Below are positions 38,152-44,652 of a stretch of 64,000 nucleotides of DNA, in pieces. The translations under genes were made by a program, and so were the position numbers. The notes below the pieces were generated by a model, which saw only the letters and a list, made by a program, of their open reading frames with translations, was not told the DNA's origin and did no database searches. Source of the DNA: Candidatus Woesearchaeota archaeon (GTDB lineage: Archaea; Nanobdellota; Nanobdellia; SCGC-AAA011-G17; PNOQ01); contig CAZCDH010000001.1 of assembly GCA_964497715.1 (NCBI GenBank), forward strand, positions 25,343-89,342, read 5' to 3'. How positions within the stretch are numbered: position 1 is the stretch's first letter; the number at the start of each line of letters is the position of its first letter.

Positions 38152-38350
38152 TAGCTACCTTATTTAATTTCACTAGAATTTTTTCTATGTCTTCTTCTGA
38201 GAGTCCGTGACTTTTTAGACCAATCTCAATCGTTTCTACATTTGCTGCAAAACAACCTACACAGTGTATTCCACTTTCAAATAATACTTCTGCTGTCTTC
38301 GGATATTCTGCTAAACATTCCCCAATTATTGTATCTTTAGTTATTTTCAT
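38141..38350 (-). CDS. DUF1858-type redox-disulfide protein.
   Basis: MKITKDTIIGECLAEYPKTAEVLFESGIHCVGC matches the DUF1858 N-terminal consensus with the CxxC motif. The start was trimmed from the tracked 38407 to the internal Met. Confidence 0.55.
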   Translation of the reverse strand: MKITKDTIIGECLAEYPKTAEVLFESGIHCVGCFAANVETIEIGLKSHGLSEEDIEKILVKLNKVANEE

Positions 38351-38717
38351 TTTTAAAACAAACCTCGCATTTTTCTGGAACATCATCATATAGTTTATGA
38401 ATTTCACAAACCATTGCCGTGTCCCGAATTAATTTTGTTAACTTAATCAATTCTTTGTGTGTCGTTGACTTTCTTTCTAGTATTCTATCTGCTGATTCTT
38501 TTACAAATTTTATTATTCTTTTACTGAACTTTGCAATTCCTCTCTTCTTTCCTAGATACTGTGAAACTGCTGCAGGAGTGATTTCTAATAGTTCTGCTAT
38601 CTCTTTTTGTTTTAATTTTTCCTTTGAAAGATGAATAGCTAATTCTCTCCGTAGTGAAGGGATTACATACCTTACTTCCACATCTTGTAGCATTAATTTC
38701 ATTAGAAAACTTAACAA
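38337..38717 (-). CDS. Small HTH DNA-binding protein with a C-terminal Cys pair (Tfx-like?). It may regulate the isc cluster.
   Basis: The HTH is KQKEIAELLEITPAAVSQYL. The C-terminus is CEIHKLYDDVPEKCEVC. Confidence 0.35.
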   Translation of the reverse strand: MLSFLMKLMLQDVEVRYVIPSLRRELAIHLSKEKLKQKEIAELLEITPAAVSQYLGKKRGIAKFSKRIIKFVKESADRILERKSTTHKELIKLTKLIRDTAMVCEIHKLYDDVPEKCEVCFKNENN

Positions 38718-38752: not shown

Positions 38753-40102
38753 TTATTCACCCATTATGTCTGGCAATTTTGATTTGCCCTTACAAGATAT
38801 AAATTGAGGATTTCCTCCCCATTCACCACCAAGGTTATTTAATCTGATAATTCCATTTAAAATTGCTCCAGATGTATCTAGATCTAATTGCCCATTAAAA
38901 CAGAATGTTCCTCCAGTGATTATATTACATCCTCCCATTTGTGAAGTCCCATAATCATTATATTTACTAACAACATTAATTAGATTTTTTTCAGAATCTT
39001 CAAGGCAGTAATTACTATAAAATCCCCATTGGGCATTTGTTGCAGTACTGTAACTTACTGAAGAATTATCAATTAGATGAAATCCAAACATACTATTATT
39101 TGTTGCTGTGCTGTACTTTGAAGAAGATGTATCTTCTAATAAAAATCCTTGACCATTACTTGTTGCCGCACTATGAGTTACTGAAGAATTATCAAGTAGA
39201 TTAAATCCAACCATACTATTATTTGTTGCCGCACTATGAGTTACTGAAGAATTATCAAGTAGATGAAATCCTTGACCAGCATTTGAAGCAAAACTATCCG
39301 TTACTGTAGAATATTCTTCTAGAAAAAAACCATAATTATTATTTGTTGATGTGCTATTTCTTACGGAAGAGGATTCTTCTAGAAAAAAACCATAATCATT
39401 ATCTGTTGACATACTACTTGTTACTGAAGAAGTATCAAGTAGATGAAATCCTACAACCCCTTTTGTTGAGGTGCTCCCTCCCACAGAAGAATTATCAAAT
39501 AAGCTAAATCCATAAACTAGATTATTTGTTGAGGTACTATCGATTGTAGAAGAATAATTTACTAAATAAAATCCATAAAATCTCCCTTCGTTTGATTTAC
39601 ATTTGCTCACAGTAGAATGATCTTTTAGATAAAATCCATAGAAATTATTTAGTGAAGTACTTTCCATTGAAGAAGAATGATTATTTAAAATGAATCCATA
39701 ATCACTATTGGTAGAGATACTACCTGTTACTAAAGAATAATCATTTAGATAAAATCCACAGGGGTTATTTGTTGCAGTACTGTTTTTTATTGAAGAGAAA
39801 CTAGATGATGTAAATCCGACTTGATTATATGTTGATGTACTGTCTACCACAGAAGAATTATCAAATAGGTCAAACCCGTACTGATTCATTGTTGCCATAC
39901 TATTTATTACAGAAGAGAAACTAGATGATGTAAATCCGACTTGATTATACAGTGCCGCACTATCAGTTATTGAAGAATAATCTTCTAAAATAATTCCAAA
40001 ATATTTATTAATAACCCTACAATCTTTTAATTTTGCATAACCTCCTAATATAAATCCTCCTTCACTATAATCTGAAATAACAGAATTATGCGAGTATAAC
40101 AT
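38753..40102 (-). CDS. Ser/Thr/Asn-rich tandem-repeat protein (about 20 copies of a roughly 20-aa unit). It is the likely C-terminal part of a split surface protein gene.
   Basis: Repeat units are like YGFFLEESSSVRNSTSTNNN / YGFHLLDNSSVTHSAATNNSMV. It lacks its own signal peptide. The upstream 141-aa ORF supplies one. Confidence 0.55.
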   Translation of the reverse strand: MLYSHNSVISDYSEGGFILGGYAKLKDCRVINKYFGIILEDYSSITDSAALYNQVGFTSSSFSSVINSMATMNQYGFDLFDNSSVVDSTSTYNQVGFTSSSFSSIKNSTATNNPCGFYLNDYSLVTGSISTNSDYGFILNNHSSSMESTSLNNFYGFYLKDHSTVSKCKSNEGRFYGFYLVNYSSTIDSTSTNNLVYGFSLFDNSSVGGSTSTKGVVGFHLLDTSSVTSSMSTDNDYGFFLEESSSVRNSTSTNNNYGFFLEEYSTVTDSFASNAGQGFHLLDNSSVTHSAATNNSMVGFNLLDNSSVTHSAATSNGQGFLLEDTSSSKYSTATNNSMFGFHLIDNSSVSYSTATNAQWGFYSNYCLEDSEKNLINVVSKYNDYGTSQMGGCNIITGGTFCFNGQLDLDTSGAILNGIIRLNNLGGEWGGNPQFISCKGKSKLPDIMGE

Positions 40103-40134
40103 GTGGCCATTACAATTAAATTGAAAATTACCTT

Positions 40135-40560
40135 CTACAGGAGTATAAATATATATATATTATGGTCGAACATGATATCCTCGGAAAAATTGGCACACCC
40201 TCCTACATAACTGAATATTACATCATTATTATGTACATCAAACCATTCTTGATCAAGATCCAAACAATCTGTTTCGATAGGAAAATCCCCACTATAATTC
40301 GTCGCATCCTTACTTGGCACAGTATTAATTAATTTTTTATGTCCATTAAATCTTGATTCCTCTAAAACTAAATTAGGTTTATCTGGAGTACTCCATTCAG
40401 ATTTACTCGGCACATAGGTTTTATCGAAGTCATAAAAACTATATCTTTTAAACTCGTTTTCATTACCCTTTAATATTATTAAACTTAATCCAACTATCAA
40501 TATAAGGGCAACAATCTTTAGAACTTTATAATTATTCAAATTTCTAATTGAACTTATCAC
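40135..40560 (-). pseudogene. N-terminal fragment (signal anchor plus about 110 aa) of the split repeat-protein gene. It ends inside an (AT)6 tract.
   Basis: MISSIRNLNNYKVLKIVALILIVGLSLIIL is a signal/TM segment. The ORF terminates at 40135. The downstream frame is open from 40159 and differs by +2/-1 within atatatatatat (40149-40160). Confidence 0.45.
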
Positions 40561-40708
40561 TTTGTTGAATAATCACAATCAGATTATATAAACCTTTTTA
40601 TATATGGATCATTAATTTGATCGGAATGTAAGAGATAAGTTTTCTAAGTTTAACTTAAAAATTAATTGAATGAAAAGATTTAAAAGTGATTAAAGAGATT
40701 ATTGAAAT

Positions 40709-42139
40709 ATGGTTAAGCAAGAAGGTATAACTGTAAAAAAAGATGAGAACTTTTCTGAGTGGTATACTCAATCAATTATTAAGAGTGAAATGGCAGATTA
40801 TACTGCAGTTTCTGGATCTATTGTTTACAGGCCAAAAAGTTATGCTATATGGGAGACCATACAAAGAGAAGTAGATAAAAAACTAAAAAAGCTTGGCGTA
40901 CAAAATGCTTATTTTCCTTTATTAATTCCTGAAAAATACTTAATGAAAGAAGCAGAACATGTTGAAGGATTTTCTCCAGAAGTTGCATGGGTTACCCATA
41001 CTGGAAATTCCAAATTAGATGAAAGGTTAGCAATAAGGCCTACTTCTGAAACAATTATGTATCCTTCTTATGCAAAATGGATTAGATCTTGGAAAGATCT
41101 GCCTTTGAAATTAAATCAGTGGAATAATGTAGTTAGATGGGAATTTAAACATGCAGTTCCATTTTTGAGAGGTAGAGAGTTTTTATGGAATGAAGGGCAC
41201 ACAGTTTTTGCAAAGAGAGAAGAAGCAGAAAAAGAGATGAAGGACATCATAAGATTATGGGATTCATTTTGTAAAGATTATCTAGCATTACCTTCATTAG
41301 TTGGCCAGAAATCAGAAAAAGAAAAATTTGCTGGTGCAGAATATACTTGGAGTACAGAGTTTATGATGCCAAATGGAAAAGCTATCCAAGGGCCAGATAC
41401 TCATTTTGATGGACAAAATTTTGCTAAAGCTTTTGACATAAGTTTCTTAGATGAAAATGAGAAGAAACAATTACCTTATCAGAATACTTGGGCAATTAGT
41501 ACAAGAATGATGGGAGTTATGTTTGCCATACATGGAGACGATAAAGGAATAGTGTTACCTCCAAAAATTGCACCAAATAAAGTTGTCTTAATCCCTATAT
41601 TATTTACAAAGACAAAAGATAAAGTAATGAAAGTTGCTAAAGATATAGAGAAAAAGCTGAAAAAATATGATGGAATTTTAGACGATAGAGAGGATTACTC
41701 GGCTGGATGGAAATTCAATGAATGGGAGCTGAAAGGCATACCTATCAGACTAGAACTTGGACCAAAGGATGTTGAAAAAAAACAAGCTGTCATTGTTAGA
41801 AGAGATAGTGGTGAGAAGATAGTTGTAAAACTGAAAGACCTTAATAGTAGTATTGACAAAGTTCTTGAAGATATACAGAGTAGTTTATTTGAAAAAGCTA
41901 AAAAGGCATTATATGATTCAATTGAAGAAGTTGGAATGATTTCTGAGCTTAAAAAAACAATCAGTAAGAAAAAAATTGGTAAAACTAATTGGTGTGGCAA
42001 TGTTACTTGTGAAGAAAATATCAAAAATAAAACTGGTACAAAGAGTTTGAACAGTGAATTTAATTCTAAAGGGGCAGGCAAATGTTTTGCTTGTGAAGCT
42101 AATGCAGAATTTGTTACTTATTTTGGGAAGAGTTACTAA
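40709..42139 (+). CDS. proS: Prolyl-tRNA synthetase, archaeal/eukaryotic type.
   Basis: It has the class II core, the archaeal ProRS C-terminal Zn domain (CGNVTCEE...CFACEANAEFVTYFGKSY) and a terminal Tyr. Confidence 0.85.
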   Translation: MVKQEGITVKKDENFSEWYTQSIIKSEMADYTAVSGSIVYRPKSYAIWETIQREVDKKLKKLGVQNAYFPLLIPEKYLMKEAEHVEGFSPEVAWVTHTGNSKLDERLAIRPTSETIMYPSYAKWIRSWKDLPLKLNQWNNVVRWEFKHAVPFLRGREFLWNEGHTVFAKREEAEKEMKDIIRLWDSFCKDYLALPSLVGQKSEKEKFAGAEYTWSTEFMMPNGKAIQGPDTHFDGQNFAKAFDISFLDENEKKQLPYQNTWAISTRMMGVMFAIHGDDKGIVLPPKIAPNKVVLIPILFTKTKDKVMKVAKDIEKKLKKYDGILDDREDYSAGWKFNEWELKGIPIRLELGPKDVEKKQAVIVRRDSGEKIVVKLKDLNSSIDKVLEDIQSSLFEKAKKALYDSIEEVGMISELKKTISKKKIGKTNWCGNVTCEENIKNKTGTKSLNSEFNSKGAGKCFACEANAEFVTYFGKSY

Positions 42140-42720: not shown

Positions 42721-44652
42721 TTAGTTTACTAGATTAACAAAAAATTTGTAAATTTGTGCGTACCATGGAATATTTATTATGTCTATCGCTTTTATCTCAT
42801 TTAATTCGAAAGTATTCCCAAATTCATCTTCGTATTCTATTAAAATCTTTATTTTATTATTCAGGAGAGATTTTGAGTTTAGCTTTGCTTCTAGATTAGT
42901 TATTCCTTGTGACTCTTGGATTATTTGTTTGTCTGCATTGTTTATAGATATGGATAAGTTTTTTATCAGTGCTTTAGAATCTAACCTAAATATGAAATCA
43001 AAGTCTTCGCCATAATTCACTTGGTTTGGATATTCAAAGTAAATCATTTTTAAGTCTGGTTTCCCCAGAACTATTAGTTGAATATTACTGATTAAATCTA
43101 CTACACCATTTTTTGCAGAGACTACTCTCTCTGTTAGATTTTCTGCATGAATTTCAAAGAGTATTTCTTTTTCTTTAGATATTGTTAAATCTATGAGTTC
43201 ACATTCTTGATCTAAACAGACTGAAATATCTGTTAAAATCTTATTACCTATATTTTTTATATTACAAGATATTGGTACAGTTTCAAAAATATAATAGTAT
43301 GGTCTCTCAGATCCACATTCTAATGAAATCTCTTCAGAATAGGTTTTTTCTTCAATCTCTTCTAACTCTTCTATCAGATCTCTTGCTTCATCTTCTGAAA
43401 TGTAATCATATCCTTCGCTTGAAGAGAATTCTATAACATCCGAAGTTATTTCACCAAATAGATCTATAACTTCTATCTGAGTGGTGTACCTCATGTTATT
43501 TTCAGCATCATCTGGAATCTTTATTATCCAAAAAATTGCTTTATTTTGTTTAGGTTTTAGTAAAGTTATCTTAGTATTATCTGACAATAAATCTGGAGCT
43601 TTTGTTATTATTGCAGTATCAGATACATAAGAATCGTATGGGTTTTCTATAGTTACTTTTATTGGAACATAACTTCCAGGAGATACATTATTCTCCAGTA
43701 TTTCTAGATCAATATCAAAAGGAGAATCTATTTTGTTTCCAAAGTCTGCAATCTCTGCACTGATGTTTAAACCCTCGGGAGAGATTAATACATTATTTGA
43801 TCTCCAATTATACCTTATTGAAGGAGTTCCAGAATCAACATTTTCTAATAACCTTATATGAGTTGGATCAATCCAACCAAACTGTCCGAATGAAATATCG
43901 AAAGGTACCCACCCATAATCTGGGAAATACGCTTCCGCCCATCCGTGATTACCAAAATCTTCTGTTGTTCCCGAATATGCTACACCTGAAATAAATCTTG
44001 TTGGAATTCCTACTGAACGAGAGAGTGAAATAAATAATGTTGCAAGCTCATCACATACACCTTCTTTATCTTCTAATACCCATGAAGAAGATAATGCCGC
44101 ATTTGCAGTTTGTGAATTCAAATCATACTCTATATTCTTTTTTACCCAGTTTGCTATTTTGAAAACTGCCGAATAAAGATTTGATTCTCCTTCAATGATC
44201 TCATTTGCTTTCTCTAATATCTCTGGAGTAATATCTGTCTTTTCTCCTTCTTCTAAGTAAATCTCATAATCTTCATCCAAGTTTATTATTGGAAATTGTA
44301 TTCGTGGAATTTTGTGTAAAACATTTTCAGTCTCTATTTTTGAAGTATATCCAAACTCTATAGTTTCCGAATAATCTTCCCATCTAAATTTTAGAGAATC
44401 ATCTAATTCACTTATCTCTGCAGGTTCATCTGAAAAAGTGTTTAAATATAGTATAGATTGTGTTTGGAGTTGAATTGGATTAATTAGAAGAGTTGCTTCA
44501 GCATGATCTAAACTAGCCCCAGACTCCTCTTCTTCCATAGTTAGTTTTGCTAAAACTTCAAGATCAATAGTTATAGTAGAGTAATCAGTATAGGACTCTT
44601 GAGCTAAAACTAATGGAACTAATAACAAAAAAAATAAAATTGCTTTTTTTAT
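42721..44652 (-). CDS. Secreted transglutaminase-like (Cys-His-Asp) domain protein. It probably initiates at ATA 44652.
   Basis: The core is EGVCDELATLFISLSRSVGIPTRFISGVAYSG...NHGWAEAYFPDYGWVPFD. The in-frame upstream codons encode (M)KKAILFFLLLVPLVLAQE, a textbook signal peptide. The SD AAGAGGTGA (44670-44662) lies 7 nt before ATA at 44652. There is no ATG or GTG upstream of the TTG at 44628. Confidence 0.6.
   Translation of the reverse strand: MKKAILFFLLLVPLVLAQESYTDYSTITIDLEVLAKLTMEEEESGASLDHAEATLLINPIQLQTQSILYLNTFSDEPAEISELDDSLKFRWEDYSETIEFGYTSKIETENVLHKIPRIQFPIINLDEDYEIYLEEGEKTDITPEILEKANEIIEGESNLYSAVFKIANWVKKNIEYDLNSQTANAALSSSWVLEDKEGVCDELATLFISLSRSVGIPTRFISGVAYSGTTEDFGNHGWAEAYFPDYGWVPFDISFGQFGWIDPTHIRLLENVDSGTPSIRYNWRSNNVLISPEGLNISAEIADFGNKIDSPFDIDLEILENNVSPGSYVPIKVTIENPYDSYVSDTAIITKAPDLLSDNTKITLLKPKQNKAIFWIIKIPDDAENNMRYTTQIEVIDLFGEITSDVIEFSSSEGYDYISEDEARDLIEELEEIEEKTYSEEISLECGSERPYYYIFETVPISCNIKNIGNKILTDISVCLDQECELIDLTISKEKEILFEIHAENLTERVVSAKNGVVDLISNIQLIVLGKPDLKMIYFEYPNQVNYGEDFDFIFRLDSKALIKNLSISINNADKQIIQESQGITNLEAKLNSKSLLNNKIKILIEYEDEFGNTFELNEIKAIDIINIPWYAQIYKFFVNLVN

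Follow-up and report, generated by a model that had tools for sequence, protein, structure and literature searches.

Does the division of a surface-protein gene at a run of AT dinucleotides reflect a switch that can be thrown in both directions, the recent death of the gene, or something of another kind? The question arises in a 64-kb stretch of DNA from a Candidatus Woesearchaeota archaeon, one of the tiny, symbiotic-type DPANN archaea (the window, by which we mean the whole of the stretch analysed), where an open reading frame (ORF) for a short anchored product and an ORF for a long repeat-rich product adjoin on the minus strand at 38753-40560, at an (AT)6 tract. At this locus a surface-protein gene is put out of frame within a simple-sequence repeat, and the result is a null allele due to a slipped-strand frameshift in a tract of demonstrated instability; the evidence for natural instability of the tract is unusually good, whereas there is none yet for switching on. 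With regard to the present state of the gene, we favour recent inactivation, to which we assign about an even chance, over a working phase-variable switch, which is a substantial but clearly lesser possibility. The parts of the locus, with the evidence that defines each of them, are as follows.

38753..40560, minus strand: the whole ancestral gene (in silico edits, collinear tblastn matches to both frames, one-piece match to the profile of the N-terminal cap, or N-cap).
40135..40560, minus strand: the upstream ORF, to which the product of the (AT)6 allele is cut short (ORF listing; gene calls on public contigs give this ORF as well).
40471..40530, minus strand: N-terminal signal anchor or transmembrane (TM) helix, residues ~11-30 (hydrophobic stretch; helix in the AlphaFold2 (AF2) model; homologues likewise).
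40150..40275, minus strand: first half of the Cys-containing N-cap, residues 96-137, C..L.Q..FD...GC..F.ED I.F.H.I (profile positions 3-44, motif alignment).
40149..40160, no strand: the (AT)6 tract ATATATATATAT, the frameshift site (direct reading, in silico edits, run counts).
39953..40135, minus strand: second half of the N-cap, in the downstream frame, F.F.CNGH...DC.V (profile positions 48-104; tblastn segments starting at 40156-40120).
38753..40102, minus strand: the downstream ORF, 449 residues from an ATG at 40102 (ORF listing).
38963..40057, minus strand: ~18 predicted beta-helix coils of 20-21 residues each, GF.L.D.SSV..S.STNN.. (GF spacing, Tandem Repeats Finder, AF2, Foldseek).
38756..38962, minus strand: C-terminal cap with four cysteines, GGTFCFNG...GEWGGNP.F.SC (kept in homologues, e.g. 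P0013; predicted local distance difference test (pLDDT) ~93-96 over residues 521-590).
40584..40592, minus strand: TATA-box-like element TTTATATAA, centred ~28 nucleotides (nt) upstream of the GTG start (direct reading).

The upstream ORF, as read directly and from the ORF listing, runs from a GTG start at 40560 to a TAG stop at 40137-40135 and encodes 141 residues, including the hydrophobic anchor segment KIVALILIVGLSLIIL and, at its very end, four out-of-frame residues (FILL) before the stop. The downstream frame is open from 40159, runs through the ATG at 40102, where gene callers start it, to a stop at 38753 and has no signal peptide of its own. In all these respects, i.e. the ORF coordinates, the signal anchor, a frame open to 40159, the position of the tract at 40149-40160 and the missing export signal of the 449-residue product, direct reading agrees with an earlier, sequence-only reading of this DNA. 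The TATA-like element, which resembles the TATA box of archaeal promoters, lies at a position that suggests a putative leaderless transcript.

Comparison with homologues bears out the proposal of the sequence-only reading that the upstream and downstream ORFs together make up a single gene for an anchored repeat protein. Neither the fused product nor the upstream stub has a Pfam or NCBIfam match. An exhaustive phmmer search with the 468-residue downstream frame (E≤1e-3) found 77 relatives, the best of which are single uninterrupted ORFs of 445-740 residues that start with a signal or TM segment and are collinear with both frames of the window; a comparison with orthologues had been proposed to look for just such an uninterrupted gene. 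Eleven uninterrupted homologues have in common a Cys-containing cap, C[IL].L.Q..FD ... GC[VI]E[LI].E[DN]I.F[ND][YH].I[IY][VI] ... [FY]F.CN[NG]H ... [DN]C.V, and in the window this cap crosses the junction unbroken, reading DCLDLDQEWFD..GGCANFSEDIMFDHNIYI on the upstream side and YTPVEGNFQFNCNGH...KDCRV on the downstream side. In tblastn alignments residues 61-113 of homologue P0018 match 40311-40150 and its residues 111-395 match 40156-39506, while residues 85-126 of P0020 match 40269-40144 and its residues 122-419 match 40156-39203; P0012, P0015 and P0017 give the same two-frame pattern. The switch of frame in these alignments falls at 40150-40156, within the tract.

A profile of the N-cap (105 positions), built from the 11 uninterrupted homologues with the window sequence excluded, gives the same result. 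Its positions 3-44 match the upstream ORF (40.4 bits, E 1.7e-13) and its positions 48-104 match the downstream frame; positions 3-104 are matched in one stretch only by the forms of the gene that carry (AT)5 (85.7 bits) or (AT)8 (83.5 bits). Both tblastn and the profile thus place a disruption in the window gene relative to its intact homologues. The minus strand of 38753-40560 is one gene, and its product is a surface protein with an N-terminal anchor, disulfides and a right-handed parallel beta-helix.

Edits made in silico reveal which tract lengths restore the frame. A tract of (AT)5 gives a single ORF of 601 residues and (AT)8 one of 603 residues, and the gain of one nucleotide also fuses the two frames (601-603 residues); stops are met at codon 142 with (AT)4, codon 141 with (AT)6, codon 144 with (AT)7 and codon 143 on loss of one nucleotide. 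The sequence-only reading had given the route to a fused protein of about 600 residues in reverse: the addition of one AT unit or the deletion of one nucleotide, which had been held to fuse the ORFs, leaves them split, and the natural (AT)7 allele, which has one added unit, still encodes a 144-residue product. When in frame, the tract is read as Ile-Tyr-Ile(-Tyr), a beta-strand of the N-cap, and the trans-frame junction peptide of the fused product is ...FDHNIYIYTPVEGNF. With 6 or 7 units the beta-helix body is out of frame, such that the natural start yields only an anchored stub of 141 or 144 residues; a step of one unit rescues the frame from either natural length (6 to 5, or 7 to 8). In terms of these edits, the gene moves between in-frame and out-of-frame states by gain or loss of units.

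The tract is no chance feature. In the window, the GC content of which is 32%, one run of at least five AT units was observed, i.e. this tract, versus 0.03 expected from dinucleotide-preserving shuffles; apart from it there is no dinucleotide run of more than 4 units in the 64 kb, and there are no homopolymers of more than 8 bases.

The fused 601-residue product comprises an N-terminal anchor, a Cys-containing cap, ~18 coils of 20-21 residues and a C-terminal cap. The tandem repeats described in the sequence-only reading are real, being ~20 residues long and rich in Ser, Thr and Asn, although the copies number ~18, not ~20. There are 17 units anchored by GF and one degenerate unit, spaced at 20-21 residues; the array is 20% Ser, 10% Asn and 9% Thr, and Tandem Repeats Finder gives it a DNA period of 60/63 nt (66-86% matches). 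One contig (L096, Logan SRR8062348) is without exactly 120 nt of the array, at 39830-39949, corresponding to two 20-residue coils; this gap reflects either an in-frame variant of coil number or the merging of a shared 32-nt exact repeat by the assembler.

A model of the fused protein was obtained using AF2 with a family alignment (A1, 62 sequences), the single-sequence prediction being unusable (pLDDT 43). The model (pLDDT 81, predicted template modelling score 0.78) shows a TM helix (residues 11-29), coils of three short strands each and, at the C terminus, a cap predicted with confidence; block means of pLDDT are at least 92 over residues 101-160, a region that spans the junction. Foldseek comparison with the PDB gave right-handed parallel beta-helices, with probabilities of 0.99-1.0 for 1ru4, 2pyg, 4nk6 and 7w1c, the matches including Pel9A (1ru4, E 1e-5), the AlgE4/AlgE6 and AlgG epimerases, capsule depolymerases, phage tailspikes and the PfbA adhesin. 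Among the 62 aligned relatives, 24 match the Pfam family Beta_helix (PF13229) and 12 match NosD (PF05048); the fused protein itself matches neither of the two even at E≤1. The modelled fold is a right-handed parallel beta-helix of stacked, three-stranded coils of ~20-22 residues.

The protein thus has a predicted fold, with caps and 20-21-residue coils, in common with members of the Pec_lyase-like clan (PF13229, PF05048; 1ru4, AlgE4, AlgG, the tailspikes and PfbA, 4mr0). It differs from them in lying below the Pfam and NCBIfam thresholds and in having coils of unusual regularity with many Ser, Thr and Asn residues; in addition, the family to which it belongs has its own Cys-containing N-cap and C-cap, which are undescribed in Pfam. 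Catalytic residues of a lyase, hydrolase or epimerase were not identified in the protein, no mapping of an active site having been made. Ten cysteines lie in the caps and early coils of the fused protein, eight of them in the downstream product, and together with the N-terminal anchor these fit an extracellular protein. When made, the protein would probably act at the surface in an adhesin-like or glycan-binding manner; it may bind glycans, cleave them or serve as an adhesin. Two relatives, P0012 and P0017, have a C-terminal TM helix and an Arg-rich tail (…YRNFSAYRINRNRMNTRRRR) in place of an N-terminal anchor alone, and the family thus shows two anchoring modes.

Is the tract stable in nature? 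The locus was recovered from public assemblies by exact-protein look-up and the tract was read in 17 assemblies; those of JGI, ENA and Logan may partly share samples, and the independent observations would then number fewer than 17. Three pipelines give (AT)6, in 13 contigs or assemblies, some of the contigs being 31-94 kb long; (AT)7 is found in four assemblies (L010, L011, L100 and L101) with near-identical flanks (0-3 single-nucleotide polymorphisms, SNPs). Each length is reported by at least two pipelines, and the (AT)7 product is a 144-residue stub that ends ...NIYIYLYSCRR, as predicted in silico. The sources of the two lengths are as follows.

(AT)6, JGI: 3300009378, 3300008625, 3300007511, 3300009128.
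(AT)6, ENA: SAMN10231891, -892, -893, -894, -914, -923.
(AT)6, Logan: SRR8062318, SRR8062348, SRR8062351.
(AT)7, JGI: 3300007504, 3300008627.
(AT)7, ENA: SAMN10231912, SAMN11854485.
(AT)7, Logan: none of the runs.

Both lengths occur on each of at least three backgrounds, which are distinguished by SNPs or by the neighbouring gene for prolyl-tRNA synthetase (ProRS).

SNP 40438C: (AT)6 in L001 and L003; (AT)7 in L011.
3' part of ProRS only ~80% identical: (AT)6 in L095; (AT)7 in L010 and L100.
SNP 40305A: (AT)6 in P0006; (AT)7 in L101.

In a four-gamete test all four combinations of tract length with SNP 40438 were found, and likewise with SNP 40305. The presence of both lengths on at least three SNP backgrounds, in a population with a diversity of ~0.1%, indicates recurrent slippage, recombination within less than 300 bp being a less likely alternative. 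Tract length has thus changed repeatedly across haplotypes, and its polymorphism among near-identical genomes is the mechanistic hallmark of slipped-strand mispairing. As a separate observation, L095, L100 and L010 share 100% identity with the window over the split gene and 5' ProRS but only ~80%, with indels, over 3' ProRS (41100-42135), a pattern that suggests either a recent block of recombination or transfer that includes the split gene, or chimeric contigs.

No assembly of the 17 carries an in-frame tract, i.e. (AT)5 or (AT)8, although these are consensus sequences, in which a minority of ON cells would be invisible. In a collection of 5.8 billion protein clusters, which holds both the 141- and the 144-residue stubs, there is no fused N-terminal product, complete or partial, and a 195-residue N-terminal query against the clustered collection returned the stub cluster only. 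Exact look-ups of the 601- and 603-residue products were also empty, a result of little weight because the 449-residue ORF is itself absent from the same collection. Scans for the N-terminal domain, and for a variable-gap DNA pattern across the tract, gave nothing in collections of genome and metagenome contigs, from which the source samples are evidently absent.

Polymorphism is concentrated in the gene: seven variable sites lie in its 1.8 kb as against three in ~11.6 kb of flanks, a SNP density 15-fold that of the flanks. Six of these SNPs are nonsynonymous and one is synonymous (a ratio from only seven SNPs, of which that at 39022 was classified by hand), and they include an F→L change in a conserved GF motif. 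Five of the seven (39212, 39175, 39170, 39030 and 39022), all of them nonsynonymous, fall within 190 nt of the repeat array. In none of the haplotypes is the 1.8-kb frame interrupted a second time, by a stop or a frameshift; a 112-residue call (P0008, in L105) was considered as a second lesion and rejected, since it is due to a 100-N scaffold gap.

The reading that we prefer, with about as much chance of being right as of being wrong, is a recent loss of function that has left a drifting, incipient pseudogene. The ancestor would have been in frame with (AT)5, tract length would have changed by slipped-strand mispairing during replication, and the resulting null allele would now be drifting, its tract slipping neutrally between 6 and 7 units without selection for a switch. 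Four lines of evidence lean to decay: neither the assemblies nor the protein collection hold an in-frame allele; SNPs are concentrated in the gene, with six of the seven nonsynonymous; the tract is not conserved in homologues; and the gene appears dispensable, being missing from the closest GTDB genome. On the third point, there is no AT run at the homologous codons of three intact homologues from equally AT-rich genomes, and the tract is therefore lineage-specific and plausibly an accident of AT-rich Ile/Tyr codons rather than a conserved device. Simple-sequence repeats are hotspots for indels in prokaryotic coding regions (PMC3315296). Like frameshift pseudogenes that arise at accidental repeats, the window gene has a tract made from ordinary codons that is unconserved, along with mostly nonsynonymous polymorphism; what sets it apart is that tract length has changed repeatedly on several haplotypes and that the gene is otherwise still intact.

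Several considerations weigh against inactivation. Contingency loci typically carry surface proteins, and the recurrent changes between 6 and 7 units mean that the tract is mutable enough for switching; as noted above, minority ON cells do not appear in consensus assemblies. Instead of relaxed constraint, the cause of the SNP cluster could be diversifying selection, gene conversion between coils or a mis-assembled repeat array. The intactness of the remaining frame also fits a gene held ready for re-activation and, with a diversity of ~0.1% being too low for second lesions to have accumulated yet, their lack does not discriminate between decay and switching. The sequence-only reading had offered a phase-variable gene or a recent pseudogene: the instability on which the former depends is real in nature, but no in-frame allele, and hence no reversibility, was found, and the balance leans slightly to the pseudogene.

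The strongest competitor of inactivation is a working contingency locus, in which (AT)n would act as a reversible switch that is ON with (AT)5 or (AT)8 and OFF with (AT)6 or (AT)7; this we regard as a serious possibility, albeit of distinctly lower probability. ON cells would then be a minority below the consensus, or would be favoured under unsampled conditions (another host, virus pressure, a different depth). The tract is unique in the window, far beyond chance, and is in the 5' quarter of a surface-protein gene; its length is polymorphic, with recurrent change on at least three backgrounds, the remaining frame is intact in all haplotypes, and a single unit step restores the frame from 6 or 7. 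The (AT)5 and (AT)8 forms fit the family profile almost equally, and because homologues vary in length right after this strand, a change of ±2 residues should be tolerated. Set against these points are the lack of an ON allele in the 17 assemblies and of a fused N-terminal product in a protein collection that holds both stubs, the 6:1 ratio of nonsynonymous to synonymous SNPs, the lack of tract conservation in homologues and the dispensability of the gene in the nearest genome. In addition, the 64 kb hold no second simple-sequence tract, and thus no sign of a multi-locus repertoire.

Repeat-tract phase variation is a textbook bacterial strategy, and CT repeats mediate it in the oipA, hopZ and babB genes of Helicobacter pylori. 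Translational phase variation by a CT repeat is likewise reported for H. pylori sabA (PMC2715451). The window locus resembles these genes in having a short dinucleotide run early in a surface-protein gene, in that a change of unit number shifts the body of the protein out of frame, and in that natural lengths differ. In H. pylori, however, alleles of both frame states occur, among strains as well as within them, and there are measurements of switching, whereas only the out-of-frame lengths of 6 and 7 were found here; moreover, the AT repeat is inside a structured cap that follows the anchor, whereas the CT repeat of H. pylori is in the signal peptide. The fimbrial switch of Haemophilus influenzae hifA/hifB employs a (TA)n tract of 9-11 units in the promoter, where it alters the -35/-10 spacing. 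Like the tract studied here, it is a TA/AT run that varies in length by slippage, and it controls a surface structure; the window tract differs in being of 6-7 units and coding, and in acting by frameshift.

DPANN archaea, as organisms that live attached to a host, rely on their surface proteins. A literature search gave no paper on phase variation by repeat tracts in these archaea, and thus no precedent for such a switch. In a 2025 review the phase-variation loci of archaea are named as a subject for future work and their distribution is treated as open (PMC11868660), and a 2025 preprint mentions that archaeal contingency loci have been described. That the locus is a slipped-strand phase-variable surface gene of an uncultured DPANN archaeon, with its ON cells present as sub-consensus minorities or in particular niches, is a tentative proposal, less probable than inactivation.

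Recoding, i.e. slippage of the ribosome or RNA polymerase on the AT repeat so as to yield full-length protein from the split gene (-1/+2 for (AT)6, -2/+1 for (AT)7), is improbable. In theory a 2-nt slip of tRNA on (AUA/UAU)n keeps its pairing, and +2 gives the frame needed for (AT)6. However, the sequence, A AUA UAU AUA UUU, has no X XXY YYZ heptamer, and there is no stable downstream structure, 61 of 200 shuffles folding as well as 40040-40148 (z = -0.5). The two natural alleles, furthermore, require shifts of unlike direction or size, and a frameshift is unconserved in that all of the homologues are single-frame. To our knowledge, transcriptional slippage is established for homopolymers and not for dinucleotide runs.

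Still less probable are two separate genes, with the AT-rich run and TTTATA serving as an internal archaeal promoter for the downstream ORF. Gene callers annotate two genes in every assembly, and the tract together with TTTATAC, which lie 45-58 nt before the ATG at 40102, could pass for an archaeal TATA box. Such a reading is contradicted by the conserved cap, which crosses the junction in 11 uninterrupted homologues; it also leaves the downstream product without an export signal despite its eight cysteines and extracellular-type fold. The upstream ORF ends in 4-7 residues that are read out of frame and are junk, differing between the alleles (FILL versus YLYSCRR), and no Shine-Dalgarno-like motif lies close to the ATG at 40102. 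An artefact of sequencing, the alternative raised in the sequence-only reading, or of assembly, with an intact gene behind a misread low-complexity tract, has a negligible chance of being correct: dinucleotide runs can stutter in PCR-based libraries, but the same split is present in more than 10 public assemblies, with (AT)6 in 13 contigs or assemblies of three pipelines, (AT)7 in four and an in-frame length in none, which excludes sequencing error as its cause. The two-gene and artefact readings, even when taken together, fall short of the small chance that we give to recoding.

The genomic setting bears on the dispensability of the gene. Its divergently transcribed neighbour encodes an archaeal-type ProRS, the best match of which among GTDB species representatives (78% identity) is in a 'Candidatus Woesearchaeota' metagenome-assembled genome (MAG) from Saanich Inlet, the other top matches all being from DPANN archaea. 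The closest GTDB genome has no counterpart of the split gene at the syntenic position, none of 80 related loci encodes a relative of it, and there is no paralogue elsewhere in the 64-kb window. Homologues with the same caps are intact and lie on other archaeal contigs of 32% GC, adjoining genes for thermosome, SRP54, RFC, PolB and FEN1. In the closest GTDB genome (Woesearchaeota MAG SI075_bin66; L012, 7143-7965) the interval between the genes for ProRS and a P-type ATPase holds only a 153-residue membrane ORF; the corresponding interval in the window holds the split gene, a small helix-turn-helix-like ORF, DUF1858, NifS and NifU.

Two other ORFs of the window are of potential relevance to regulation or to the cell surface. 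Directly downstream of the split gene, on the minus strand at 38337-38717, is an ORF of 121-126 residues with a helix-turn-helix-like segment (EIAELLEITPAAVSQYL), C-terminal Cys residues and no Pfam match, which could encode a small regulator. At 42721-44628, also on the minus strand and two genes away beyond ProRS, is an ORF for a 635-residue protein with a transglutaminase core (PF01841), a candidate surface or envelope protein.

The overall results define an unannotated archaeal family of beta-helix surface proteins with conserved Cys-containing caps. Diversity-generating retroelements are already known in these lineages; if the tract does prove to work as a switch, it would, alongside them, be the first population-genomic case of switching by a simple-sequence repeat at the surface of a host-dependent archaeon. 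If the gene is instead an early pseudogene, the locus would offer a clear view of a process in which AT-rich codon usage produces slippery tracts by accident and genes of reduced genomes are lost to them. As a coding repeat with length change in the wild, in a gene for a surface beta-helix protein, it provides a concrete locus at which slippage-based bet-hedging in DPANN archaea can be tested.

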